Below are positions 1 through 16,517 of a DNA stretch of 29,138 nucleotides, piece after piece. Position 1 is the first letter of the stretch. The number at the start of each line of letters is the position of its first letter. The notes under the pieces are model-generated. The model was not told the origin of the DNA. It did not search any database and saw only the letters and a list, made by a program, of their open reading frames with translations. Source of the DNA: an uncultured Fibrobacteraceae bacterium. GTDB lineage: Bacteria; Krumholzibacteriota; Krumholzibacteriia; LZORAL124-64-63. The position numbers and the translations under genes are program-made. The stretch lies in the NCBI GenBank assembly GCA_964384055.1, contig CAYLIV010000045.1:1-29138 (forward strand), in the 5' to 3' direction.

Positions 1-212
1 AGGGGCTACCATCTTTGGCACCTTCTTCACAAACATGTGGAGGAGGTGCTTTCTTTTTGCAGTAGGGGATGCATTGACCTGTTCCCATCCCGAATCAAAC
101 AACGCCGGGCGGTGTGAAGGGGAAAGCCTGCGTGAGTTGAAATCTGGTCCAGTCGGAAGTTGGTGAATCTGTCAGGTTGAACCAGGATCTCCTTCTTCAC
201 CAACACGGCAAC

Positions 213-1895
213 TCAGGAACGAGACGGCCCGGATTGATCCTCTGGAATGTTATCAAAGTTTCTGAGTACCCGCTCGATGATTGTATCCGCCGCTGCAGCT
301 TCTGCGGCGACAACATGGGTGGCGCCAGCTTTCTCCAGGCGCTTCACATCGGTTTCGTAGGTGGTTCGCACGGTGATCCGCAGATCGGGTGCCGCAAGTC
401 GCGCGGCTCCAGTTACCCGAGCCGTTGCGTCCGGATCGTTGATAGCGACCACGAGTTCGCTGGCATCGGCAACCCCGAGATGCTCGAGCACCTCTGCGCT
501 CGTAACGTCTCCGAAGCAAGCCGGCTCTCCCCGCCGAGCCGCCTCCCGAACATTCTCGCTGTTGAGATCGACGATAATGTACCGCGCACCTATCTGTGTG
601 AGAGAGCGGGCCAGACCCCTGCCCGTCAAGCCATACCCGGCGATGATGACGTGGTCCCTCAATGACTCGGATTTCTGTATCTCCGCTATGGTTTGCACCT
701 GGAGCAGACGCGTCAAGTGGTTGAGCTTTCCCAATCCAGCCGCCAGGTGGGGCCCCAGCGCGAGCCCAAATGGCGTGGCCAGCATCGAAAGGATGATTGC
801 CACAGTGAGATTGCCCCGAAGAGGTTCTTCCAGCAGGCCTGTTCCGCTCGCCGCTAGAAGGAGGACAAAGGCGAACTCTCCGACCTGGGACAAAGAAGTG
901 GCGGTTAGGATTCCCACACGCGCCGGAAGCCTCATGATGGAAGCGGCAAGGAAAATGATGATGAACTTACCAACGATGATGGCGCCGAATAGTCCGAGAA
1001 TGGGGAGCAGGTTATCGAGCACGTTCCCGAGATCGAGCAGCATGCCGATAGAGACGAAGAACACACTGGCGAGAACATCGCGCAACGGGACAAGATCGGA
1101 GATCGCCTGCTCGCGATACCGGCTACCGGAAACGACCAAGCCGGCGAGAAACGCGCCGAGGGCCAGCGAGACGCCCGCGGTTGATACCACCCAGGCGGTC
1201 CCGAGGCAGATCAGAAAGACGGAAAGTACGAAGAGATCGCGCTCCCGCGTGCGTGCAATTGCTTCGAGAAAACGAGGCACGACCAATCGCGACGCCACCA
1301 GTACGCCAGTGATCACTGCTGCAGCCTTCAGTAGCAGGACCAGCACGCTCGTACCAGCGCTGGCGGTGTCACAAAGGACAGGAATGAGTAGGACCATCGG
1401 TACGACACAGAGGTCCTGAAAGATCAGAATGCCAAGTGCCAGCCGACCGTGCGGCGTCTCGAGTTCTCCCCGGGTCGACAGGCCCCTCAGGACAATGGCA
1501 GTGCTCGATACGGCGATAATGAAACCCAGCAACAGTCCCGATCGAATGTCTCGCCCGAACAGATCATTGAGCCATAACACGATCAGGATAGTGGTGCCTA
1601 CCTGGACGGCGCCTCCTACGGCGATCGGTCTCCAGAGCCGGCGGACCCGGTTCAAGGAGAGCTCGAGTCCAATGCCGAAGAGGAGCAGCACAACGCCAAG
1701 TTCGGCGAGAGTTTCGACCTGGTGGATATCCTGAACAAGTCCCAGCGCGTTGGGCCCGATAACTGTTCCGGCGACGATGAACCCCGCGATAGACGGCACT
1801 CCCAAGCGGCGTAGAAACGCAACTACGGCAACAGCTGCCGCGAGAATTATAACCAGGTCCAAGAGGAAGACTAGCTCAGTCACAGCCGTTCCCAT
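213..1895 (-). CDS. Monovalent cation:proton antiporter-2 (CPA2) family, KefB/KefC-like, with C-terminal RCK/TrkA-N NAD-binding domain (copy 1)
   Basis: The 560-aa ORF starts at an ATG. About twelve hydrophobic helices show the Na+/H+-exchanger pattern (GPNALGLV, LLFGIGLE). They are followed by a Rossmann motif, IIAGYGLTGRGLARSL…IVDLN, typical of RCK domains. Confidence 0.85.
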   Translation of the reverse strand: MGTAVTELVFLLDLVIILAAAVAVVAFLRRLGVPSIAGFIVAGTVIGPNALGLVQDIHQVETLAELGVVLLLFGIGLELSLNRVRRLWRPIAVGGAVQVGTTILIVLWLNDLFGRDIRSGLLLGFIIAVSSTAIVLRGLSTRGELETPHGRLALGILIFQDLCVVPMVLLIPVLCDTASAGTSVLVLLLKAAAVITGVLVASRLVVPRFLEAIARTRERDLFVLSVFLICLGTAWVVSTAGVSLALGAFLAGLVVSGSRYREQAISDLVPLRDVLASVFFVSIGMLLDLGNVLDNLLPILGLFGAIIVGKFIIIFLAASIMRLPARVGILTATSLSQVGEFAFVLLLAASGTGLLEEPLRGNLTVAIILSMLATPFGLALGPHLAAGLGKLNHLTRLLQVQTIAEIQKSESLRDHVIIAGYGLTGRGLARSLTQIGARYIIVDLNSENVREAARRGEPACFGDVTSAEVLEHLGVADASELVVAINDPDATARVTGAARLAAPDLRITVRTTYETDVKRLEKAGATHVVAAEAAAADTIIERVLRNFDNIPEDQSGPSRS

Positions 1896-2269
1896 CCGAT
1901 AAACCCCGGAGTTTTACCAAGCGGAATTCAGCCAGTTTGTTGAATCCGCCGCCGCCGACCTTAACATCGCAGAACGGCCCGGTATACAGATTATAGCCAG
2001 TCAAAACCGGCTGACCACAGAGTACTTATCCTCTGAGCTGGCACAACTTTCATTACTCCAGATTAACAGGGCCAGGCCGCGAGCATGTGTGAAAGATCTT
2101 CGATTCTTGCCTGCTCCCACTTCATGGCGTCTGCTGACTACCATCTCGAATGCCTCCCTCACCGATGGTTGGGGGAGGCAATTCTGTGTGCGAAGCGAAC
2201 CGATCAGCACTCATGGCCGATCTGGCATGGTCGCGTCGAGGAAAGGCACCCTCCCGGCGCGAAGCCAGG

Positions 2270-2965
2270 TCAAGGTGACGATCCCGGCGAACCGACAGGA
2301 ATCACGAACCGCAAGACACAGAAAAAATGTAGAGTTGTGCCTGCCAGCACGAACAGATGCCAGACGGCGTGATGGTAAGGGAATCCACGCCAGATGTAGA
2401 AGATAGCGCCGGCACTGTAAGCCGCGCCACCCATTCCCAGCCAGATCAGAGCCTGCATCGGGAGTGCCGCGGCAAGTGGTCGAAAGGCGATGGCCACGAG
2501 CCAGCCGAGGGCGAGGTAGAAAACGAGGGACAACCTTTTCCAGGGACGGCGCCAGACGACCTCGTAGACTATTCCCAGGGCCGCCAGCCCCCATCCCAGG
2601 CCGATGAGGGTCCAACCCCAGCCACCGCCCAGCACGATCAGGGCGAACGGCGTGTAGGTGCCGGCGATGAGCAGGTAGATGGCGCCATAATCCAGCAACT
2701 CGAAGACGAACTTGGCGCGGGCCGCGGTGAGGGCGTGATAGAGGGTCGAGGCAGCGTACAGGGTCAGTATGGACCCGCCGAAAATGGTGACGCCCACCAC
2801 GGTCTGCGCATCGCCTGACGCCGCAGCACGCCAAACAAGAATCACCAGGCCCACCGCGCCACCGAGTGTTCCGAGGCCGTGGGTGATCGCATGGGCGATC
2901 TCCTCGCCGCGTGAGAAACGATCATGCTCAAAGGTGCCACGCAACGGGACTCTCTCCTGATCCAT
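2270..2965 (-). CDS. Hemolysin-III / PAQR (YqfA) family membrane protein (copy 1)
   Basis: The 231-aa ORF starts at an ATG and has seven predicted TM helices. Family motifs are present: EEIAHAITHGLG, TLYHA, LLDYGAIYLLIAGTYTPF and YHHAVWHLFV. Confidence 0.85.
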   Translation of the reverse strand: MDQERVPLRGTFEHDRFSRGEEIAHAITHGLGTLGGAVGLVILVWRAAASGDAQTVVGVTIFGGSILTLYAASTLYHALTAARAKFVFELLDYGAIYLLIAGTYTPFALIVLGGGWGWTLIGLGWGLAALGIVYEVVWRRPWKRLSLVFYLALGWLVAIAFRPLAAALPMQALIWLGMGGAAYSAGAIFYIWRGFPYHHAVWHLFVLAGTTLHFFCVLRFVIPVGSPGSSP

Positions 2966-3012
2966 GGTGACAGGGCCGGTTGGCTCTGGGGCCGCCCCAG
3001 TGCAGGTCTAGC

Positions 3013-3048
3013 AGAAAAAAGCCCCGATCTCCAGAGAAGACCGGGGCC
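3013..3048 (-). terminator. Intrinsic terminator downstream of the RRM gene (copy 1)
   Basis: A 6-bp GC stem (gccccg/cggggc) with a 15-nt loop is followed on the minus strand by U6 (plus-strand A6 at 3015..3020). A second small hairpin, gcgcc-ttccg-ggcgc, lies at 3071..3085. Confidence 0.5.
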
Positions 3049-3098
3049 GTGAGGAAAATCGGGATTCACCGCGCCTTCCGGGCGCCGTGATCAGGTGC

Positions 3099-3368
3099 TT
3101 ACCACCTCGAGCCGCCGCGAGGCTCACGCGGGCGCGCCTCGTTGACGTTGAGAGCTCGACCGTCGACTTCCCGGCCATTGATCGCCTGGATGGCCTGCAT
3201 GGCTTCGTTGTCGTTCTCCATCTCCACGAATCCGAATCCCCGCGAGCGGCCGGAATCGCGATCGGTGACGACCGTGGCGCTGTTGACGGCGCCATGCTCT
3301 GCAAACAGGGAATTGAGGTCGGGGTCGGACGTGTCGAAGCTGAGGTTGCCCACATAGATCTTCTTCAA
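3099..3368 (-). CDS. RRM-type (RNP-1/RNP-2) RNA-binding protein with Arg/Gly tail (copy 1); TTG start
   Basis: The 89-aa ORF carries RNP-2 (KIYVGNLSF) and RNP-1 (RGFGFVEM). The start codon is TTG, since the plus strand reads caa at 3366..3368. A Shine-Dalgarno AGGAAG lies 7 nt upstream. The only alternative start is an internal GTG. Confidence 0.8.
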   Translation of the reverse strand: MKKIYVGNLSFDTSDPDLNSLFAEHGAVNSATVVTDRDSGRSRGFGFVEMENDNEAMQAIQAINGREVDGRALNVNEARPREPRGGSRW

Positions 3369-3437
3369 GACTGCACTTCCTTCGGAACTCGGAATCCGCC
3401 GTCATTAACAGATATCGGTTCAACTCGACGGATCTAC

Positions 3438-3462
3438 AAAAAAAGCCGGCAGGGTTGCCGAC
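3438..3462 (-). terminator. Terminator-like hairpin plus U7 inside the RRM upstream leader (copy 1); candidate attenuator or 3' end of an upstream small RNA
   Basis: Minus strand: gucggca-accc-ugccggc followed by uuuuuuu (plus-strand A7 at 3438..3444). The stem is better on the minus strand (G·U) than on the plus strand (C/A mismatch). It lies about 75 nt upstream of the RRM TTG start. Confidence 0.45.
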
Positions 3463-3976
3463 CGGGCGCAATATAGGTGGATTCGGGGGAAACACAAGGT
3501 ATTTCTCCGATCATCGGTTCCCTGCCAATGGTCCCGGTACCGGATGCACCTCGCTGTCTGATCACTGTTATAGTACTACGGCGAGTGCCCCGGCTCGCGG
3601 CCTCGGGAGTGCTCCAGCCGCGGTCTGGGAGGTGGCAGCCCAGGATTCAAATCTTGTGGCTCGAGAGGTGCGGCGGAGGATCGTCCAGACAGGAGTATAT
3701 CAATTCCGGGACGGAAAACCACTTCCGACGGAGCACTCCGGGAGAGGTTCGCATACTGTCCCATACGGGCTACCATCTTTGGCACCTTCTTCACAAACAT
3801 GTGGAGGAGGTGCTTTCTTTTTGCAGTAGGGGATGCATTGACCTGTTCCCATCCCGAATCAAACAACGCCGGGCGGTGTGAAGGGGAAAGCCTGCGTGAG
3901 TTGAAATCTGGTCCAGTCGGAAGTTGGTGAATCTGTCAGGTTGAACCAGGATCTCCTTCTTCACCAACACGGCAAC

Positions 3977-5659
3977 TCAGGAACGAGACGGCCCGGATTG
4001 ATCCTCTGGAATGTTATCAAAGTTTCTGAGTACCCGCTCGATGATTGTATCCGCCGCTGCAGCTTCTGCGGCGACAACATGGGTGGCGCCAGCTTTCTCC
4101 AGGCGCTTCACATCGGTTTCGTAGGTGGTTCGCACGGTGATCCGCAGATCGGGTGCCGCAAGTCGCGCGGCTCCAGTTACCCGAGCCGTTGCGTCCGGAT
4201 CGTTGATAGCGACCACGAGTTCGCTGGCATCGGCAACCCCGAGATGCTCGAGCACCTCTGCGCTCGTAACGTCTCCGAAGCAAGCCGGCTCTCCCCGCCG
4301 AGCCGCCTCCCGAACATTCTCGCTGTTGAGATCGACGATAATGTACCGCGCACCTATCTGTGTGAGAGAGCGGGCCAGACCCCTGCCCGTCAAGCCATAC
4401 CCGGCGATGATGACGTGGTCCCTCAATGACTCGGATTTCTGTATCTCCGCTATGGTTTGCACCTGGAGCAGACGCGTCAAGTGGTTGAGCTTTCCCAATC
4501 CAGCCGCCAGGTGGGGCCCCAGCGCGAGCCCAAATGGCGTGGCCAGCATCGAAAGGATGATTGCCACAGTGAGATTGCCCCGAAGAGGTTCTTCCAGCAG
4601 GCCTGTTCCGCTCGCCGCTAGAAGGAGGACAAAGGCGAACTCTCCGACCTGGGACAAAGAAGTGGCGGTTAGGATTCCCACACGCGCCGGAAGCCTCATG
4701 ATGGAAGCGGCAAGGAAAATGATGATGAACTTACCAACGATGATGGCGCCGAATAGTCCGAGAATGGGGAGCAGGTTATCGAGCACGTTCCCGAGATCGA
4801 GCAGCATGCCGATAGAGACGAAGAACACACTGGCGAGAACATCGCGCAACGGGACAAGATCGGAGATCGCCTGCTCGCGATACCGGCTACCGGAAACGAC
4901 CAAGCCGGCGAGAAACGCGCCGAGGGCCAGCGAGACGCCCGCGGTTGATACCACCCAGGCGGTCCCGAGGCAGATCAGAAAGACGGAAAGTACGAAGAGA
5001 TCGCGCTCCCGCGTGCGTGCAATTGCTTCGAGAAAACGAGGCACGACCAATCGCGACGCCACCAGTACGCCAGTGATCACTGCTGCAGCCTTCAGTAGCA
5101 GGACCAGCACGCTCGTACCAGCGCTGGCGGTGTCACAAAGGACAGGAATGAGTAGGACCATCGGTACGACACAGAGGTCCTGAAAGATCAGAATGCCAAG
5201 TGCCAGCCGACCGTGCGGCGTCTCGAGTTCTCCCCGGGTCGACAGGCCCCTCAGGACAATGGCAGTGCTCGATACGGCGATAATGAAACCCAGCAACAGT
5301 CCCGATCGAATGTCTCGCCCGAACAGATCATTGAGCCATAACACGATCAGGATAGTGGTGCCTACCTGGACGGCGCCTCCTACGGCGATCGGTCTCCAGA
5401 GCCGGCGGACCCGGTTCAAGGAGAGCTCGAGTCCAATGCCGAAGAGGAGCAGCACAACGCCAAGTTCGGCGAGAGTTTCGACCTGGTGGATATCCTGAAC
5501 AAGTCCCAGCGCGTTGGGCCCGATAACTGTTCCGGCGACGATGAACCCCGCGATAGACGGCACTCCCAAGCGGCGTAGAAACGCAACTACGGCAACAGCT
5601 GCCGCGAGAATTATAACCAGGTCCAAGAGGAAGACTAGCTCAGTCACAGCCGTTCCCAT
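3977..5659 (-). CDS. KefB/KefC-like CPA2 antiporter with RCK domain (copy 2, identical translation)
   Basis: Identical 560-aa translation, offset +3,764. Confidence 0.85.
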   Translation of the reverse strand: MGTAVTELVFLLDLVIILAAAVAVVAFLRRLGVPSIAGFIVAGTVIGPNALGLVQDIHQVETLAELGVVLLLFGIGLELSLNRVRRLWRPIAVGGAVQVGTTILIVLWLNDLFGRDIRSGLLLGFIIAVSSTAIVLRGLSTRGELETPHGRLALGILIFQDLCVVPMVLLIPVLCDTASAGTSVLVLLLKAAAVITGVLVASRLVVPRFLEAIARTRERDLFVLSVFLICLGTAWVVSTAGVSLALGAFLAGLVVSGSRYREQAISDLVPLRDVLASVFFVSIGMLLDLGNVLDNLLPILGLFGAIIVGKFIIIFLAASIMRLPARVGILTATSLSQVGEFAFVLLLAASGTGLLEEPLRGNLTVAIILSMLATPFGLALGPHLAAGLGKLNHLTRLLQVQTIAEIQKSESLRDHVIIAGYGLTGRGLARSLTQIGARYIIVDLNSENVREAARRGEPACFGDVTSAEVLEHLGVADASELVVAINDPDATARVTGAARLAAPDLRITVRTTYETDVKRLEKAGATHVVAAEAAAADTIIERVLRNFDNIPEDQSGPSRS

Positions 5660-6033
5660 CCGATAAACCCCGGAGTTTTACCAAGCGGAATTCAGCCAGT
5701 TTGTTGAATCCGCCGCCGCCGACCTTAACATCGCAGAACGGCCCGGTATACAGATTATAGCCAGTCAAAACCGGCTGACCACAGAGTACTTATCCTCTGA
5801 GCTGGCACAACTTTCATTACTCCAGATTAACAGGGCCAGGCCGCGAGCATGTGTGAAAGATCTTCGATTCTTGCCTGCTCCCACTTCATGGCGTCTGCTG
5901 ACTACCATCTCGAATGCCTCCCTCACCGATGGTTGGGGGAGGCAATTCTGTGTGCGAAGCGAACCGATCAGCACTCATGGCCGATCTGGCATGGTCGCGT
6001 CGAGGAAAGGCACCCTCCCGGCGCGAAGCCAGG

Positions 6034-6729
6034 TCAAGGTGACGATCCCGGCGAACCGACAGGAATCACGAACCGCAAGACACAGAAAAAATGTAGAGTT
6101 GTGCCTGCCAGCACGAACAGATGCCAGACGGCGTGATGGTAAGGGAATCCACGCCAGATGTAGAAGATAGCGCCGGCACTGTAAGCCGCGCCACCCATTC
6201 CCAGCCAGATCAGAGCCTGCATCGGGAGTGCCGCGGCAAGTGGTCGAAAGGCGATGGCCACGAGCCAGCCGAGGGCGAGGTAGAAAACGAGGGACAACCT
6301 TTTCCAGGGACGGCGCCAGACGACCTCGTAGACTATTCCCAGGGCCGCCAGCCCCCATCCCAGGCCGATGAGGGTCCAACCCCAGCCACCGCCCAGCACG
6401 ATCAGGGCGAACGGCGTGTAGGTGCCGGCGATGAGCAGGTAGATGGCGCCATAATCCAGCAACTCGAAGACGAACTTGGCGCGGGCCGCGGTGAGGGCGT
6501 GATAGAGGGTCGAGGCAGCGTACAGGGTCAGTATGGACCCGCCGAAAATGGTGACGCCCACCACGGTCTGCGCATCGCCTGACGCCGCAGCACGCCAAAC
6601 AAGAATCACCAGGCCCACCGCGCCACCGAGTGTTCCGAGGCCGTGGGTGATCGCATGGGCGATCTCCTCGCCGCGTGAGAAACGATCATGCTCAAAGGTG
6701 CCACGCAACGGGACTCTCTCCTGATCCAT
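6034..6729 (-). CDS. Hemolysin-III / PAQR family membrane protein (copy 2)
   Basis: Identical 231-aa translation, offset +3,764. Confidence 0.85.
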   Translation of the reverse strand: MDQERVPLRGTFEHDRFSRGEEIAHAITHGLGTLGGAVGLVILVWRAAASGDAQTVVGVTIFGGSILTLYAASTLYHALTAARAKFVFELLDYGAIYLLIAGTYTPFALIVLGGGWGWTLIGLGWGLAALGIVYEVVWRRPWKRLSLVFYLALGWLVAIAFRPLAAALPMQALIWLGMGGAAYSAGAIFYIWRGFPYHHAVWHLFVLAGTTLHFFCVLRFVIPVGSPGSSP

Positions 6730-6776
6730 GGTGACAGGGCCGGTTGGCTCTGGGGCCGCCCCAGTGCAGGTCTAGC

Positions 6777-6812
6777 AGAAAAAAGCCCCGATCTCCAGAG
6801 AAGACCGGGGCC
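6777..6812 (-). terminator. Intrinsic terminator downstream of RRM gene (copy 2)
   Basis: Same sequence as 3013..3048. Confidence 0.5.
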
Positions 6813-6862
6813 GTGAGGAAAATCGGGATTCACCGCGCCTTCCGGGCGCCGTGATCAGGTGC

Positions 6863-7132
6863 TTACCACCTCGAGCCGCCGCGAGGCTCACGCGGGCGCG
6901 CCTCGTTGACGTTGAGAGCTCGACCGTCGACTTCCCGGCCATTGATCGCCTGGATGGCCTGCATGGCTTCGTTGTCGTTCTCCATCTCCACGAATCCGAA
7001 TCCCCGCGAGCGGCCGGAATCGCGATCGGTGACGACCGTGGCGCTGTTGACGGCGCCATGCTCTGCAAACAGGGAATTGAGGTCGGGGTCGGACGTGTCG
7101 AAGCTGAGGTTGCCCACATAGATCTTCTTCAA
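6863..7132 (-). CDS. RRM-type RNA-binding protein (copy 2); TTG start
   Basis: Identical 89-aa translation, offset +3,764. This copy keeps the native upstream region, which continues into unique sequence at 7540. Confidence 0.8.
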   Translation of the reverse strand: MKKIYVGNLSFDTSDPDLNSLFAEHGAVNSATVVTDRDSGRSRGFGFVEMENDNEAMQAIQAINGREVDGRALNVNEARPREPRGGSRW

Positions 7133-7201
7133 GACTGCACTTCCTTCGGAACTCGGAATCCGCCGTCATTAACAGATATCGGTTCAACTCGACGGATCTA
7201 C

Positions 7202-7226
7202 AAAAAAAGCCGGCAGGGTTGCCGAC
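7202..7226 (-). terminator. Terminator-like hairpin plus U7 in RRM leader (copy 2)
   Basis: Same sequence as 3438..3462. Confidence 0.45.
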
Positions 7227-7712
7227 CGGGCGCAATATAGGTGGATTCGGGGGAAACACAAGGTATTTCTCCGATCATCGGTTCCCTGCCAATGGTCCCG
7301 GTACCGGATGCACCTCGCTGTCTGATCACTGTTATAGTACTACGGCGAGTGCCCCGGCTCGCGGCCTCGGGAGTGCTCCAGCCGCGGTCTGGGAGGTGGC
7401 AGCCCAGGATTCAAATCTTGTGGCTCGAGAGGTGCGGCGGAGGATCGTCCAGACAGGAGTATATCAATTCCGGGACGGAAAACCACTTCCGACGGAGCAC
7501 TCCGGGAGAGGTTCGCATACTGTCCCATACGGGCTACCAGTTTCCTGAGTACGGCTTCCCCCAGCGGAGGGAGGCCGTCTCTGTTTCAAGACAGAAATCA
7601 CCGCAGCCACAACCGACTCTTGCGCACCGGGCCGATTTGTCTATTCTTCCCTCGATCGGAATCATCCAGATGGCCGCTGCCGGCCACGCTCCAATCTCGG
7701 AAAGGCAACGCC

Positions 7713-11895: not shown

Positions 11896-12222
11896 TCAAT
11901 TCAAGGCGCTGTCCAGAGCCGAAGCCAGCTCCTCCTTGGGCTTCACGCCCACGTAACTCGTATGCACGTTGCCGTCCTTGAAGATCATTACCGTGGGAAT
12001 GCCGCGGATGCCGAATCGGGTGGCGAGCTCTCGATTGTCGTCCACGTTGATCTTGGCGACCTTCACCTTGCCGTCGTACTCGGCGGCGAGCTCCTCGACG
12101 ATCGGGCCGATCATCTTGCAGGGGCCACACCAGGGCGCCCAGAAATCCACGAGCACCGGAACATCGCTGGCAGCCACTTCGACGTCGAAATTGTTACCGT
12201 CAACATTCATGCTGTTAGCCAT
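11896..12222 (-). CDS. trxA: Thioredoxin
   Basis: 108 aa with the WAPWCGPCK active site and a GIRGIPT motif. The ATG start is at 12222. Confidence 0.9.
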   Translation of the reverse strand: MANSMNVDGNNFDVEVAASDVPVLVDFWAPWCGPCKMIGPIVEELAAEYDGKVKVAKINVDDNRELATRFGIRGIPTVMIFKDGNVHTSYVGVKPKEELASALDSALN

Positions 12223-12442
12223 GGTTGATTCCTTTCGGATTTCGGACTGTTTGCAGTCTGTGCAATGGTAGCTGCAGACCGTGAACGCTGTTTTCGGAGA
12301 GCATCATGCAGCTCGCGTGCCCGATCGGGGCAATGAAGATAAATTTTCTCATGAATCAGTTAACGATTATCATTGCAATGTTTTAGGGGTATTAATTTTC
12401 AATCTAATCGTGTCCTGTGATGACACGACAAAGTCCGGGTGT

Positions 12443-12480
12443 TTGACGTTAGCGTTGCATGCAGCTATATTGTTGCAACA
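12443..12480 (+). promoter_or_regulatory. Near-consensus sigma-70 promoter (TTGACG, 17 bp, TATATT) with an overlapping 10-bp perfect palindrome TGTTGCAACA (12471..12480) and flanking TTGCATGC palindromes (12454..12461 and 12487..12494)
   Basis: An AT-rich island of about 150 bp (12340..12490) between divergent trxA and the sigma-54 activator gene. The hexamers and spacer were counted from the sequence. Three TTGCA-containing palindromes lie within 45 bp. Confidence 0.5.
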
Positions 12481-12535
12481 TAAGTGTTGCATGCTACGCC
12501 GGGGTCGTCTTCCGCGGTCATTGTGGTGGCTGACG

Positions 12536-13954
12536 ATGACCGGGTGCTGCCATCAGGAGGTGCGGACCGTGTCCATCGCAGACGATTCGAAGCAGCCGGA
12601 ACTACCGTGCGAGGCCGGACCCGCGCTCAACAGTTTCGGCCCGGCGTGCTTGCTGCCGGTGCTGTCGGCCATGCGGGAAGGCGTCGTGGGCGTGGATGGC
12701 GATCTGCGGATTATCGGCGTGAATCCGGCTGCCGAGCGCATTCTCGGTCGCGACTTCGTCGAACTGGCCGGCAGTCCGGTGTGTACGCTCTACGGCGACG
12801 AGAGCTGTCCCTCGGACCAGCTGGCCGAGACCTTGCGCAGCGGTGAGCCGATCCTCGATTTCCAGACGTCCATCAGGCTGCGGAGCGGTGGCAGGGGGCA
12901 GGTGCTCATCCGCTCGGTGCCCCTCGAGCCCCGCCAGGGCGGCTCCATGGGGGTCGCACTCATACTTGGCGACGTGACCGAGGTCACCGAGTTGCGTAAA
13001 CGGATCAGGCGCCGCCGGCGCCTCGGCGATATCGTCGGCCAGGACCAACGCATGCAGGAGCTGTTTCGTCTGATCGAGGACGTGGCGGCGAGTCCGGCCA
13101 GCGTGCTTATCCGCGGTGAGAGCGGCACGGGCAAGGAGCTGGTGGCCAAGGCCATCCACAACGAGAGCAACCGGGCGTCCGGGCCTTTCGTGCAGGTCAA
13201 CTGTTCCGCGCTGTCCGAGTCGCTGCTCGAAAGCGAACTCTTCGGGCATGCCAAGGGCGCGTTCACCGGCGCAATCGCGTCGCGCCGGGGGCGTTTCGAG
13301 GAAGCGAGCGGCGGCACCATCTTCCTGGATGAGATCGGTGATGTGAGCCCGGTGATCCAGGTCAAGCTGCTGCGGGTGCTGCAGGAGCGGGTCGTGGAGC
13401 GGGTCGGTGAGAATCAGCCGCGGCCGGTGGATGTGCGGGTCGTCTCGGCCACCAACCGGGACCTCGCGGCGCTGCTGGCGACCGGCCGGATGCGCGAGGA
13501 CTTCTTCTACCGGATCAAGGTCGTATCACTGGAGATTCCTCCGTTGCGCCAGCGGCGACAGGATATCCCGCTGCTGGTCCGCCATTTTCTGGATCGTGCT
13601 CGCGCAACCGATGAAGCGGCCGCCGACGTGGACATCTCCAGCGCCGCCATGTCGACGATGATGGCGCACGCCTGGCCGGGCAACGTTCGCGAGCTGGCCA
13701 ATGCCGTCGAACACGCGCTCGTGCTGCGTCGTGGTGGGGTGATCCAGCCGCAGCATCTACCGGTGGAGATATCCCGCGGCGGGCAGGCCGGTCTGCGGGA
13801 GGTGCCTTTGCATAGCGACCAGGAGAGGGATCTCATCCTGGCGGCGCTCGAGCGCGCCGGCTGGAACCGCTCCCGCGCGGCGCGGCAACTCGGCATCGAC
13901 CGCACGACACTCTGGCGAAAGATCAGGGAATACAGGCTTCAAGAGTCGTCCTGA
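12536..13954 (+). CDS. Sigma-54-dependent Fis-family transcriptional activator with N-terminal PAS-like sensor domain
   Basis: Walker A GESGTGKE, the sigma-54 contact motif GAFTGA, ESELFGH, and a C-terminal Fis-type HTH ([22 protein letters not shown]). The start is taken at the ATG at 12536, preceded by GGTGG. The ATG at 12491 or the ORF start at 12281 are less likely because 12281..12490 is AT-rich promoter-like DNA. Confidence 0.8.
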
Positions 13955-14133
13955 TTGCTGTCCAGGTCGGTCGCACCGTCCGCCTGGTTCCGGCGATTGC
14001 GCTGTCTGACCGCCTGTCCGAGCAGGAATTCAATCTGCCCGTTGACACTGCGGAACTCCGCTTCGGCCCAGCGCCGCAGCTCTGTGTAGAGCTGCGGGCT
14101 GATGCGGAGGGGAAACGTCTTGCGGGCTGCCAC
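13939..14133 (-). CDS. Arc/MetJ-type ribbon-helix-helix DNA-binding protein (64 aa); GTG start
   Basis: [35 protein letters not shown] matches the Arc-family beta-alpha-alpha pattern. The start is GTG (plus-strand cac at 14131..14133) with GGAG 8 nt upstream. The gene overlaps the 3' end of the sigma-54 activator gene convergently by 16 bp. Confidence 0.5.
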
Positions 14134-14176
14134 GGTATCGCTCCGGCTACGTGGTTATTGTCTCGATGCGGTTTCG

Positions 14177-15043
14177 CTATTGATACAGCGTACCGGTGTT
14201 GACCACCGGCTGAGCCGCGTGTTCACTGCACAGCACCACGAGCAGATTACTGACCATCGTGGCCTTCTTTTCCTCGTCGAGCTCGACGAGCTCCTTGGCG
14301 TTCAGCTCTTCCAGCGCCATCTCGACCATGCCCACCGCGCCCTCGACGATCTTCTTCCGGGCGGCGACCACGGCGCTGGCCTGCTGCCGCTGCAGCATGG
14401 CGCCGGCGATCTCCGGCGCGTAGGCCAGGTGGCTGATCCGCGCCTCGATGACGGTCACACCGGCCTGGTTCAGACGCTCCTGCAGTTCCCGCTGCAGGTG
14501 AGCATTAATCTCATCGGTGGCGCCGCGCAACGTCAGGCTGTCTTCGGGGCCGTCGTACGGGTAGGAGCTGGCCAGGTGTCGTACGGCAGACTCGCTCTGG
14601 GTTGTGACGTAGTCCTCGTAGTCGTCGACCTCGAACAGCGCCATGGCGGAATCCCGCACCTTCCAGACCACGACAACCGCGATCTCGACGGGATTACCCG
14701 TCAGATCGTTCACCTTGAGGCGCTCGCTGTTGAAGTTGCGTGCTCGGAGCGAGACCTTCATCTTCGTCAGGAAAGGATTGGCGTAACGGAATCCGTTCTG
14801 CGTGCTCGTACCCTTGTAAGCACCGAACAACAACAGGGCAGCCGCCTCGTTGGGATTGATGATGAAGAATCCGGCAGAGAGGAATATGTTCACCACCAGC
14901 AGGATGCTCATGGTGATGATCTGACCAGGGATCTCGGCGGCGATACCGGCGATGAGCAGGTAGATGAACACGGCGTACAGGCAGATGTTGATGAACAGTA
15001 TCGCCCAACCGGACGCGGAATTGAAAGTCTTGTCGGCGTGCAT
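14177..15043 (-). CDS. SPFH / band-7 (stomatin/HflC-like) membrane protein
   Basis: 288 aa with two N-terminal TM helices followed by an SPFH core (…[23 protein letters not shown]…, a coiled-coil tail). The ATG follows GGAGG. The same strand continues 43 bp downstream into the RHH gene. Confidence 0.75.
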
Positions 15044-15091
15044 CGTCGAGCCTCCAGCGCTTTGGGATCCGGTGATCCCTGGTTCGTGTCA

Positions 15092-15108
15092 GATATCATA
15101 ATGATATC
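15092..15108. promoter_or_regulatory. 17-bp perfect palindrome GATATCATaATGATATC in the AT-rich promoter region of the SPFH–RHH operon; candidate operator
   Basis: Read directly from the sequence. It lies about 50 bp upstream of the SPFH start codon in a low-GC stretch of about 60 bp. Confidence 0.5.
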
Positions 15109-15155
15109 ACTATGACATCATACACACAATCGGTATTTCTATTCGGCACTGAAAT

Positions 15156-15185
15156 AAAAAAAACCGGCCGGAGGATCCGGCCGGT
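15156..15185 (-). terminator. Intrinsic terminator downstream of pepT
   Basis: A 9-bp stem ACCGGCCGG/CCGGCCGGT with loop AGGAT is followed on the minus strand by U8 (plus-strand A8 at 15156..15163). Confidence 0.7.
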
Positions 15186-15254
15186 ACATTAATCCCAATA
15201 TATTGTTGTAATTGAATGAATTACGATTCAAGCGCAATCAGCTGCGGACTCGAA

Positions 15255-16517
15255 TCAGGACTCCTTCTCGGTCCAGACCCCGATCAGCTGCAGGATCGTG
15301 TCCACCGCCAGATGCATGTCCTTGACGCAGATCCACTCGGTGTAGCCGTGGAAAGCCTGTTCACCGGTGAAGATGTTCGGCGTCGGCAGGCCACGCGCCG
15401 AAAGGTTCGAGCCGTCGGTACCGCCGCGGATCGAACCGAGTTTGGGCTCCAGACCGGTGCGCTTGACCGCTTCCATGGCGTACTCGATGGCCCGCGGTTC
15501 TTTTTCGAGATCATATTTCATGTTGCGGTAGTACTGCTTGATCTCGAAATCGATGCTGCTGCCGGGCCACTTCGCGCACGCTTTCTCGGCATACTCGCGG
15601 ATCTTCTCGGCCTTGGGTTCGAGACCGTTCACGTCGAAATCGCGGATCAGGAGCGTAACTTCGGTTTCACTCGTGTTGCCCTTGATACTGATCGGGTGGA
15701 TGTAACCCTCCTGGCCCTCGGTGGTCTCGGGAGTGCCCTCGCGCGGCAAGCTGGCGACAAATTCCGACGCGACCTTGATCGACGGGATCATCTTGTCCTT
15801 GGCGTATCCGGGATGGATATCGCGCCCGATGAACTTGACGATGGCGCTGTCGGCACAGAAGGTCTCGTTTTCCACCTCGCCCCGCTGCCCGCCGTCCATG
15901 GTGTAGGCGACCGTGGCCCCGAACTCCTCGATGTCGAAGTGTTTCACGCCCTGGCCCACTTCCTCGTCGGGCGTGAAGGCGATCTTGACCGGGCCGTGCT
16001 GGAAGTCCGGATTCTCCTTCAACCGTGTGAGCGCCTCCAGGATCTCGGCGATACCGGCCTTGTCGTCGGCGCCGAGCAGCGTGGTGCCGTCGGCGGTGAT
16101 GATCGTCTCGCCCTTGCAGGTCTCGAGATAGGGATTGTCCTTCACCGTTATCTTCCGGCCTTCCTGGGGCAGGTCGATGTCGCCGCCCTGGTAGTTGTCG
16201 TGGAAGGTGGGAATGACGTTCTCGCCGCTGACCTCGGGATAGGTGTCCATGTGGGAGATGAAGGCGATGGCCGGTACCTTTTCCCCGGCCGGGAAATTGG
16301 CGGGCAAGGTCGCCGTGACGTAGCAGTTGTCATCGACCTTCGCGTCGTCGAGGCCGAGCGCCCTCAGCTCCGTGACCAGGATCTTCGCCAGATCGAACTG
16401 GCGCTCGGTCGAGGGATAGGTTTCGGACTCTTCGCTACTGGTCGTGTGGACCTTGACGTACGAGACGAAACGATCGACGAGCGAGGGGAACTGCGAATCC
16501 GCTTTCCGTTCTAGCAT
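15255..16517 (-). CDS. pepT: Tripeptide aminopeptidase (peptidase T, M20B family)
   Basis: 420 aa from the ATG at 16517, preceded by GGAGG. The N-terminus MLERKADSQFPSLVDRFVSYVKVHT matches the PepT N-terminus, and M20 metal-binding His/Asp/Glu blocks are present. The 41 extra codons upstream in the ORF track are Arg-rich and unlikely to be coding. Confidence 0.8.
   Translation of the reverse strand: MLERKADSQFPSLVDRFVSYVKVHTTSSEESETYPSTERQFDLAKILVTELRALGLDDAKVDDNCYVTATLPANFPAGEKVPAIAFISHMDTYPEVSGENVIPTFHDNYQGGDIDLPQEGRKITVKDNPYLETCKGETIITADGTTLLGADDKAGIAEILEALTRLKENPDFQHGPVKIAFTPDEEVGQGVKHFDIEEFGATVAYTMDGGQRGEVENETFCADSAIVKFIGRDIHPGYAKDKMIPSIKVASEFVASLPREGTPETTEGQEGYIHPISIKGNTSETEVTLLIRDFDVNGLEPKAEKIREYAEKACAKWPGSSIDFEIKQYYRNMKYDLEKEPRAIEYAMEAVKRTGLEPKLGSIRGGTDGSNLSARGLPTPNIFTGEQAFHGYTEWICVKDMHLAVDTILQLIGVWTEKES

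Follow-up and report, generated by a model that had tools for sequence, protein, structure and literature searches.

The SPFH/Band_7 gene and the adjacent ribbon-helix-helix (RHH) gene described here probably form a self-contained, negatively autoregulated two-gene operon, in which cooperative RHH dimers bound to short DNA hexamers occlude the promoter. Both genes lie on the minus strand of a 29,138-nt stretch of DNA from an uncultured Fibrobacteraceae bacterium (contig CAYLIV010000045.1 of assembly GCA_964384055.1), hereafter called the window. The SPFH gene (14177..15043) is a 288-aa open reading frame (ORF) with a Pfam Band_7 match, and its ATG is preceded at a distance of 7 nt by a Shine-Dalgarno sequence, GGAGG (15051..15055, minus strand, read from the sequence). 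It is followed by an Arc-like RHH gene with a GTG start (13939..14133), a 64-aa ORF that matches Pfam RHH_5 and ParD_like. The 43-nt intergenic spacer (14134..14176, minus strand) contains the ribosome-binding site of the RHH gene, GGAG at 14141..14144, 7 nt 5' of the GTG. ORFs, Pfam and sequence thus agree with the gene arrangement given in an initial annotation of this DNA. The same annotation had proposed that the pair is an autoregulated module, and this proposal is supported by the conservation of the pair together with a hexamer array at its promoter and by the joint absence of RHH gene and array in four loci, with repression as the predicted outcome.

The conserved DNA unit upstream of the pair is the hexamer GATATC, more fully TGATATCA, present in two or three copies at an exact 11-bp period. 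There are three copies in the window. Hexamer 1 (15114..15119; GATGTC on the minus strand, GACATC on the plus strand) lies in the promoter spacer, inside TATGACATCATA (15111..15122) and 11 bp from hexamer 2. Hexamer 2 (GATATC, 15103..15108) is embedded in the extended −10 element TGaTATCAT, and hexamer 3 (GATATC, 15092..15097) is located about the predicted transcription start, which is itself inferred from the −10. Hexamers 3 and 2, with the symmetric 5-nt spacer between them, make up a perfect 8+1+8 palindrome of 17 bp, GATATCATAATGATATC (15092..15108). The initial annotation had noted this palindrome, also written GATATCATaATGATATC, and had regarded it, with a related half-site, as the operator. 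Both sites are indeed present, but the unit is the 11-bp hexamer array, and the half-site is its third repeat. We rejected the 17-bp palindrome as operator, since it excludes the third repeat and relatives do not conserve its spacer; the perfect symmetry of the spacer in this window is incidental.

In the whole window the array occurs solely at the SPFH promoter. When up to two mismatches are allowed, shuffled windows contain GATATC-N5-GATATC 0.43 times on average, with two or more matches in 5 of 100 shuffles. Chance within one window is therefore a weak argument, and the significance of the array comes from its conservation in relatives. We surveyed these with one genome per species, which gave more than 570 confirmed SPFH loci, and retained the best 80. 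The 180-nt zone upstream of each SPFH gene was searched for GATATC-N5-GATATC with at least 10 of 12 positions matching. The array was found in 75 of the 80 loci, and in 76 after the start of the SPFH gene in locus L051 had been corrected. This corresponds to about 280-fold enrichment (113 matches in 14,290 upstream positions vs 14 in 493,377 positions elsewhere). The spacing of the hexamers is equally constrained: 11 bp occurs in 76/80 loci and 22 bp, that is the third repeat, in 34/80, while none of the remaining spacings between 6 and 23 bp exceeds 13/80. The 5-nt spacers between the hexamers are A/T-rich and not conserved across relatives.

The RHH gene is conserved to the same extent. When the six-frame ORFs of the 80 loci were searched with the RHH profile, a homologue (E 1e-16 to 1e-28) was found immediately downstream of the SPFH gene and on the same strand in 76 loci. 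The gap between the two genes is 0–30 nt in 38 loci and 31–120 nt in 22. The 80 loci come from Fibrobacterota, Eisenbacteria, Krumholzibacteriota, Planctomycetota, Hydrogenedentota, Acidobacteriota, Bacteroidota, Ignavibacteria, Chloroflexota, Deinococcota, Alphaproteobacteria, Gammaproteobacteria and Clostridia, and the pair with its promoter site recurs in at least a dozen phyla. The same pair is found in annotated records of Bacillus thuringiensis, Deinococcus and Prevotella, and is also carried by Acetoanaerobium, Nonomuraea, Bosea and Rhizobium. In Bacillus cereus/thuringiensis its two proteins are WP_000660677.1/WP_001085171.1. The gene-neighbourhood survey suggested in the initial annotation has thus revealed a recurrent RHH partner, and the RHH ORF is anything but unconserved in relatives. 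Clustering of all flanking ORFs in the 80 loci gave no recurrent neighbour other than a gene for a protein with two transmembrane (TM) helices. About a dozen of the loci, from Bacteroidota and Fibrobacterota, have this third gene between the one for SPFH and the one for RHH (L023:3851-4375, L029, L032, L046, L054, L056, L059, L061, L069 and L076, with a shorter version in L002:3845-4336). Its product has 140–190 aa, two N-terminal TM helices, a conserved (E/Q)(F/Y)GGxG motif and a weak Pfam bPH_5 match, and it may be an accessory subunit of the SPFH–RHH module.

It is important to note how the array is placed relative to the promoter. Reading of the minus strand gives a putative −35 hexamer TTGTGT (15124..15129; 3/6 matches to TTGACA) 17 nt upstream of the −10, and an extended −10 of the general form TGnTATCAT (15101-15109; −10 at 15106-15101, TG at 15109-15108). 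We placed this promoter by visual inspection and by comparison with homologous loci, many of which show TTGACA-N17-TATCAT in the same position. Among 76 loci, 32 have a −35 with at least four of six matches at 16–18 nt upstream of the −10 embedded in the hexamer, vs 8 in a displaced control. The array spans the promoter spacer, the −10 and the start site, and therefore occupies the classical position of a repressor. In Acetoanaerobium noterae the operator is extended to a 31-bp perfect palindrome, CCTATTTGATATCATTATGATATCAAATAGG (L088:1222-1252), which directly follows a TTGACA hexamer and precedes the start of the SPFH gene by about 150 nt. The upstream boundary of the unit is the intrinsic terminator of pepT (15163..15185, minus strand), whose stem of 10 bp, eight of them GC pairs, precedes TTTTTTTATT; pepT lies upstream of the SPFH gene on the same strand and was identified via NCBIfam PRK05469 (E 5e-162). 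The terminator scan reported no terminator-like site between the SPFH and RHH genes (14134..14176). Because of the upstream terminator and the uninterrupted space between the genes, the pair appears to be a transcription unit of its own.

Does the array belong to the RHH gene? We scored the presence of both in 90 loci, the window included. RHH gene and array are both present in 82 loci and both absent in four (L030, L065, L084, L085). The RHH gene occurs without the array in two, Bosea and Rhizobium, where GATATC copies remain in another arrangement, and the array occurs without the RHH gene in two others, L033, which has an RHH remnant, and L038, which has no RHH gene within 3 kb. The co-occurrence gives a Fisher p = 8.5e-5. 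Regarding Bosea (L086:1290-1360) and Rhizobium (L087:1230-1300), single GATATC copies are found there at other spacings, the SPFH proteins show 42–48% identity, and the RHH ribbon differs as well (e.g. EREALSLRL), so that these loci may have a shifted operator architecture.

A search in the reverse direction, blind to genes, used the exact box TGATATCA-N3-TGATATCA against metagenome contigs and returned 120 loci. In 60 of them an SPFH gene of the same family starts 10–214 nt downstream, and the RHH gene is seen in 48 of these 60. As for the other 12, the sequence stops inside the SPFH ORF or within 32 nt of it in 10 cases, and in the remaining two (L199 and L209) only 292 and 94 nt of sequence extend beyond the SPFH ORF. 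Another 13 motif loci (L104, L106, L116, L155, L156, L162, L164, L180, L196, L206, L208, L211 and L212) immediately precede genes for FitA-like RHH antitoxins (Pfam PF22513), which are followed by PIN toxins. At least 73 of the 120 motif instances therefore adjoin operons encoding an RHH protein, which supports TGATATCA as an RHH-type binding box; about 47 of the 120 are near neither module. The FitA-like RHH proteins and the RHH partners of SPFH are distinct lineages (profile–profile E 0.013, probability 3%). Two barely related RHH lineages thus appear to use the same DNA box.

The RHH protein passes the Pfam gathering cut-offs of RHH_5 (28.8 bits, cut-off 26) and ParD_like (27.2 bits, cut-off 23). 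The same 64-aa gene was called independently by the gene callers of the Joint Genome Institute (JGI) and the European Nucleotide Archive (ENA) on near-identical metagenome contigs. The label Arc-like used in the initial annotation is fair: the protein is labelled Arc-like repressor in PHROGs (1.5e-5), and its profile can be aligned with P22 Arc through the strand, helix A and the RSVN loop that opens helix B. Among 1.84 billion cluster representatives, a profile search detected 1643 relatives at E ≤1e-10, all of them small proteins. Residues K5, L9, R10, W22, A23, R28, S29 and N31 are invariant in the alignments, and the near-invariant core reads (R/K)K-x-F-x-LR-I/L ... W-A ... (F/L)RS-x-N-(G/A)-Q-IE. 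The C-terminal tail is charged and short in most members, and neither its sequence nor its length is conserved. The orthologue in Bacillus thuringiensis (L082:3261-3425) is named 'toxin-antitoxin system HicB family antitoxin', elsewhere the name is 'hypothetical protein', and on a plasmid of Bosea sp. ANAM02 (L086:2211-2507) the RHH ORF is present (E 2.5e-12) yet missing from the PLSDB gene table. The current gene names are probably misleading.

Judged by its sequence, the SPFH protein is a genuine Band_7 member, remote from every characterised one. The Pfam Band_7 match (PF01145) covers residues 60-231 of the 288 with E 2.4e-26 and 93 bits vs a cut-off of 23.6. The equivalog level of HflK and HflC is not reached (TIGR01933, 29 bits vs 159; TIGR01932, 24 bits vs 134), and the closest solved structure by sequence is HflK, at E 1e-5. 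Homologues form more than 8000 clusters, the best 120 of which are at 65–100% identity. The AlphaFold2 (AF2) model contains helices 13-36 and 39-57, an alpha/beta region and a helix 206-249; its mean predicted local distance difference test score (pLDDT) is only 58, which is due to the shallow diversity of the alignment. This low-confidence model suggests an N-terminal two-helix membrane hairpin, then the SPFH domain, then a long C-terminal helix. A Foldseek comparison of the same model with the PDB puts stomatin, prohibitin and HflK/C at the top and, given the mean pLDDT of 58, is supportive only.

From these data we infer how the operon could work, from dimerisation, DNA binding and cooperativity to repression and physiological purpose. 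A sigma-70-type promoter with a weak −35 and an extended −10 would drive both the SPFH and the RHH gene. The RHH protein is expected to dimerise, and the two-stranded ribbon of each dimer would enter the major groove of one GATATC, which is a 6-bp palindrome. Since the hexamers are 11 bp apart, approximately one helical turn, neighbouring dimers would occupy the same side of the helix and cooperate in binding, much like the two Arc dimers on their subsites, which are likewise 11 bp apart. Bound RHH protein would exclude RNA polymerase because the array covers the spacer, the −10 and the start site. One mRNA would encode both the repressor and the SPFH protein, so that the output of the operon would settle at a fixed level, which would be fitting for a protein expected to build large membrane cages.

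Several observations weigh against this scheme. AF2 folds the RHH monomer into one extended helix (pLDDT 76) and not into strand-helix-helix; this is to be expected of an obligate intertwined dimer, but the model lends no structural support and was not used for a fold search. The −35 of the window matches at only half of its positions, and a promoter scan reported no promoter. We found no covariation between the RHH ribbon residues and hexamer variants (e.g. GATATA in Planctomycetota), both being conserved. No sensor domain that could account for relief of repression is evident in the RHH repressor. Finally, the linkage has exceptions in both directions, as the two divergent alphaproteobacterial loci retain the RHH gene without the 11-bp array and L038 retains the array with no RHH gene nearby.

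The alternative that survives best, although we consider it unlikely, is a feedback sensor: the RHH repressor would be titrated or stabilised by the SPFH protein, and transcription would reflect whether the SPFH cage is assembled or under stress. This can be likened to the control of PspF by PspA or to toxins that tune the DNA binding of RHH antitoxins, and it is compatible with autorepression. For an RHH protein that has no ligand-binding domain a protein partner would be a natural signal, and across phyla the SPFH and RHH genes are inherited together as a closed unit that lacks any further recurrent neighbour. Moreover, lysines before the first helix of the predicted membrane hairpin suggest that the SPFH domain is cytoplasmic, and the DNA box is shared with FitA-like antitoxins, whose prototype FitA binds DNA more strongly together with its partner protein (PMC3920265, PMC3378870). 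However, outside the DNA-binding fold the RHH protein has only a short, low-complexity and unconserved tail, which is an unlikely interface for a partner that is 65–75% conserved. Judged by the lengths of the matches (267–296 aa for SPFH and 55–127 aa for RHH), there are also no fusions of the two proteins among them. In its most novel form, the SPFH–RHH pair would be an ancient and horizontally shared feedback device for the state of the membrane, in which SPFH assembly sequesters or releases the repressor or acts as a co-repressor; we give this form just as small a chance. If it were true, the TGATATCA array would make transcription a readout of how far SPFH cages are occupied or intact. SPFH proteins would thereby gain a new signalling logic, and the RHH protein would be the first dedicated transcription factor known for the SPFH family.

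Still less probable is a toxin–antitoxin-like or abortive-infection module, with SPFH as a membrane-damaging effector and RHH as both antitoxin and operon repressor. The ParD_like match of the RHH protein, the name HicB family antitoxin given by NCBI to the Bacillus thuringiensis orthologue, the compactness of the module, its varied genomic contexts and patchy distribution, and the DNA box common to genuine FitA–PIN toxin–antitoxin loci are what would be expected of such a module. Nevertheless, the SPFH gene is tolerated alone: the four loci that lack both RHH gene and array carry it, and so does L038, where the array is present. The RHH tail is too short and too variable for a toxin-neutralising domain, no known toxin family is adjacent to the RHH gene, as its partner matches Band_7 only, and neither protein has a match in PADLOC-DB 2.0 at E up to 1. 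The genes around the pair in the window (pepT, an OPT transporter, thioredoxin, OmpA and a PLD-family protein) are of housekeeping character. Among 2.9 million viral contigs the SPFH gene was present in only 8, in most cases at the end of the contig. The SPFH matches in phage records are 'UNVERIFIED_ORG' wastewater contigs, two of which were counted as extra SPFH loci without RHH gene and without array, and not as phage carriage.

Least probable of all is that the RHH protein acts elsewhere and that the array is not its target but a conserved −10, a site for some other host factor, or a hairpin formed by RNA or DNA. The central repeat does coincide with the extended −10, so that part of the conservation could be that of the promoter, two GATATC copies could pair as a 6-bp hairpin, and the roughly 47 metagenome matches near neither module would fit such a view; but Bacteroidota, whose promoters have a different consensus, conserve the array equally, the flanking repeats are outside the −10 and yet phased at exactly 11 bp, RHH gene and array are jointly absent in four loci, and no host factor besides the co-inherited RHH protein is known to be common to all these phyla. 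A role of the hexamers as a hairpin was rejected, since 59 of the 63 loci with variant hexamers break the complementarity between hexamers without compensation, and no relevant Rfam family matches the promoter or the 5' untranslated region. Weak Rfam matches at 15157-15227 on the minus strand (e.g. Hrs13, E 0.0012, 25 bits vs a gathering score of 52) all coincide with the terminator hairpin of pepT and are most likely terminator look-alikes.

Returning to autorepression by the RHH protein as the preferred reading, its regulatory logic is already well known: a tiny RHH autorepressor is co-transcribed with its target, as in the case of CopG or Arc. The Arc operator has subsites about 11 bp apart that are bound by two cooperating dimers and overlap the promoter, and this geometry matches the 11-bp hexamer array. 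P22 Arc and the RHH protein are both small (53–64 aa), have the strand motif x-F-x-L-R and start helix B with RSVN. They differ in that the match is remote (PDB profile E 0.002–0.13), the SPFH–RHH pair is chromosomal and found across phyla whereas Arc is a phage immunity gene, GATATC is unlike the Arc operator, there are up to three subsites, and the predicted target is an SPFH membrane protein. CopG of pMV158, which has counterparts in similar RHH autorepressors of bicistronic operons, is a tiny RHH repressor, co-transcribed with its target, that binds repeats overlapping the promoter and excludes RNA polymerase (PMC2724298), as is proposed for the pair. In copG-repB, however, the repressor gene comes first while it is second in SPFH–RHH, CopG controls plasmid copy number, and its operator differs in both sequence and architecture.

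A third RHH group for comparison is that of the FitA-like antitoxins of FitAB/VapBC type II toxin–antitoxin systems; the operator half-site of fitAB is TGCTATCA. FitA binds operator half-sites via its RHH fold (PMC3920265, PMC3378870). The exact TGATATCA-N3-TGATATCA box lies 0–34 nt upstream of most of the 13 RHH–PIN operons, and in this respect they are like the SPFH–RHH pair. The pair is unlike them in having an SPFH partner instead of a PIN toxin, in its reversed gene order and in the lack of a toxin-binding C-terminal domain.

On the SPFH side, the nearest parallel is the operons of SPFH and NfeD genes (stomatin/QmcA-YbbJ, flotillin YuaG-YuaF, YqfA-YqeZ), which combine a membrane SPFH protein with a small dedicated partner (PMC2636767). 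The SPFH–RHH pair is likewise a conserved, putative operon of a predicted membrane-anchored SPFH protein with one small dedicated partner gene, but the partner is an RHH protein of the DNA-binding type and not an NfeD membrane protein. An NfeD gene is neither adjacent in the window, where the neighbours are pepT and the RHH gene, nor recurrent in the 80 relatives. The survey of prokaryotic SPFH proteins from 2009 gives NfeD partners for subfamilies 1, 2 and 5, describes SPFH6-12 as small subfamilies with no documented members, and names no DNA-binding partner (PMC2636767). HflK/HflC and stomatin share with our protein an SPFH domain, which in our protein is predicted to be followed by a long helix as it is in them, HflK being the best match by sequence and human and archaeal stomatin by fold. 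The relationship is very remote; the protein described here is predicted to have an N-terminal two-helix hairpin, and no link to FtsH is evident. HflK/HflC and stomatin form cages, and the present subfamily may do so.

The initial annotation had also stated that no description of a pairing of SPFH with RHH was known to its author, and literature searches, which covered open-access text, agree with this: we did not find the pairing there, nor did we find a PADLOC model or an Rfam family for it. A paper on the Bacillus anthracis flotillin and a 2026 survey of Pseudomonas SPFH proteins do not mention it. What appears to be new is the pairing with SPFH, its breadth across phyla and the near-invariant phased operator.

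Some further features of the window should be mentioned. The RHH gene and the sigma-54 activator gene overlap convergently at their 3' ends by 16 bp (13939..13954), as had been annotated; the activator ORF ends at 13954, and close relatives are alike in this respect. The activator ORF (12281-13954; PAS, AAA+ and a Fis-type helix-turn-helix) has 557 aa from the first GTG, and 461–472 aa according to other gene callers. It is syntenic with the SPFH–RHH pair only in close relatives such as L002. The promoter region of the pair is AT-rich (GC 0.45–0.49 over 15000-15300 vs 0.55–0.70 in the coding sequence on both sides). This part of the initial annotation holds; the region is not the sole AT-rich stretch nearby, as GC is 0.43 over 12200-12500. 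The first ~300 nt of the activator ORF are AT-rich too (GC 0.43) and are probably promoter and leader rather than coding sequence. At the beginning of the window there is an exact tandem duplication of ~3.77 kb (3-3775 / 3767-7539, offset 3764 bp, zero mismatches) that contains genes for a Na+/H+ exchanger-TrkA_N protein and a haemolysin-III-family protein. It could be a genuine recent event or an assembly artefact.

Regarding the significance of these results, labels of the RHH gene such as 'hypothetical' and 'HicB family antitoxin' call for correction, and in at least one gene table the gene has to be added. The system offers simple handles: a binding or reporter assay, a mutant with the RHH gene deleted, predicted to be derepressed, that could reveal the effect of excess SPFH protein, and TGATATCA at every 11 bp as an annotation tag. 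Most bacterial SPFH proteins have no assigned function, and the only recognised dedicated partners are NfeD proteins. Our results define a large and highly conserved SPFH subfamily whose partner is predicted to be a DNA-binding repressor. The promoter element of this subfamily is nearly invariant from Bacillota to Bacteroidota to Deinococcota, and regulator–operator pairs that are conserved so widely are few.

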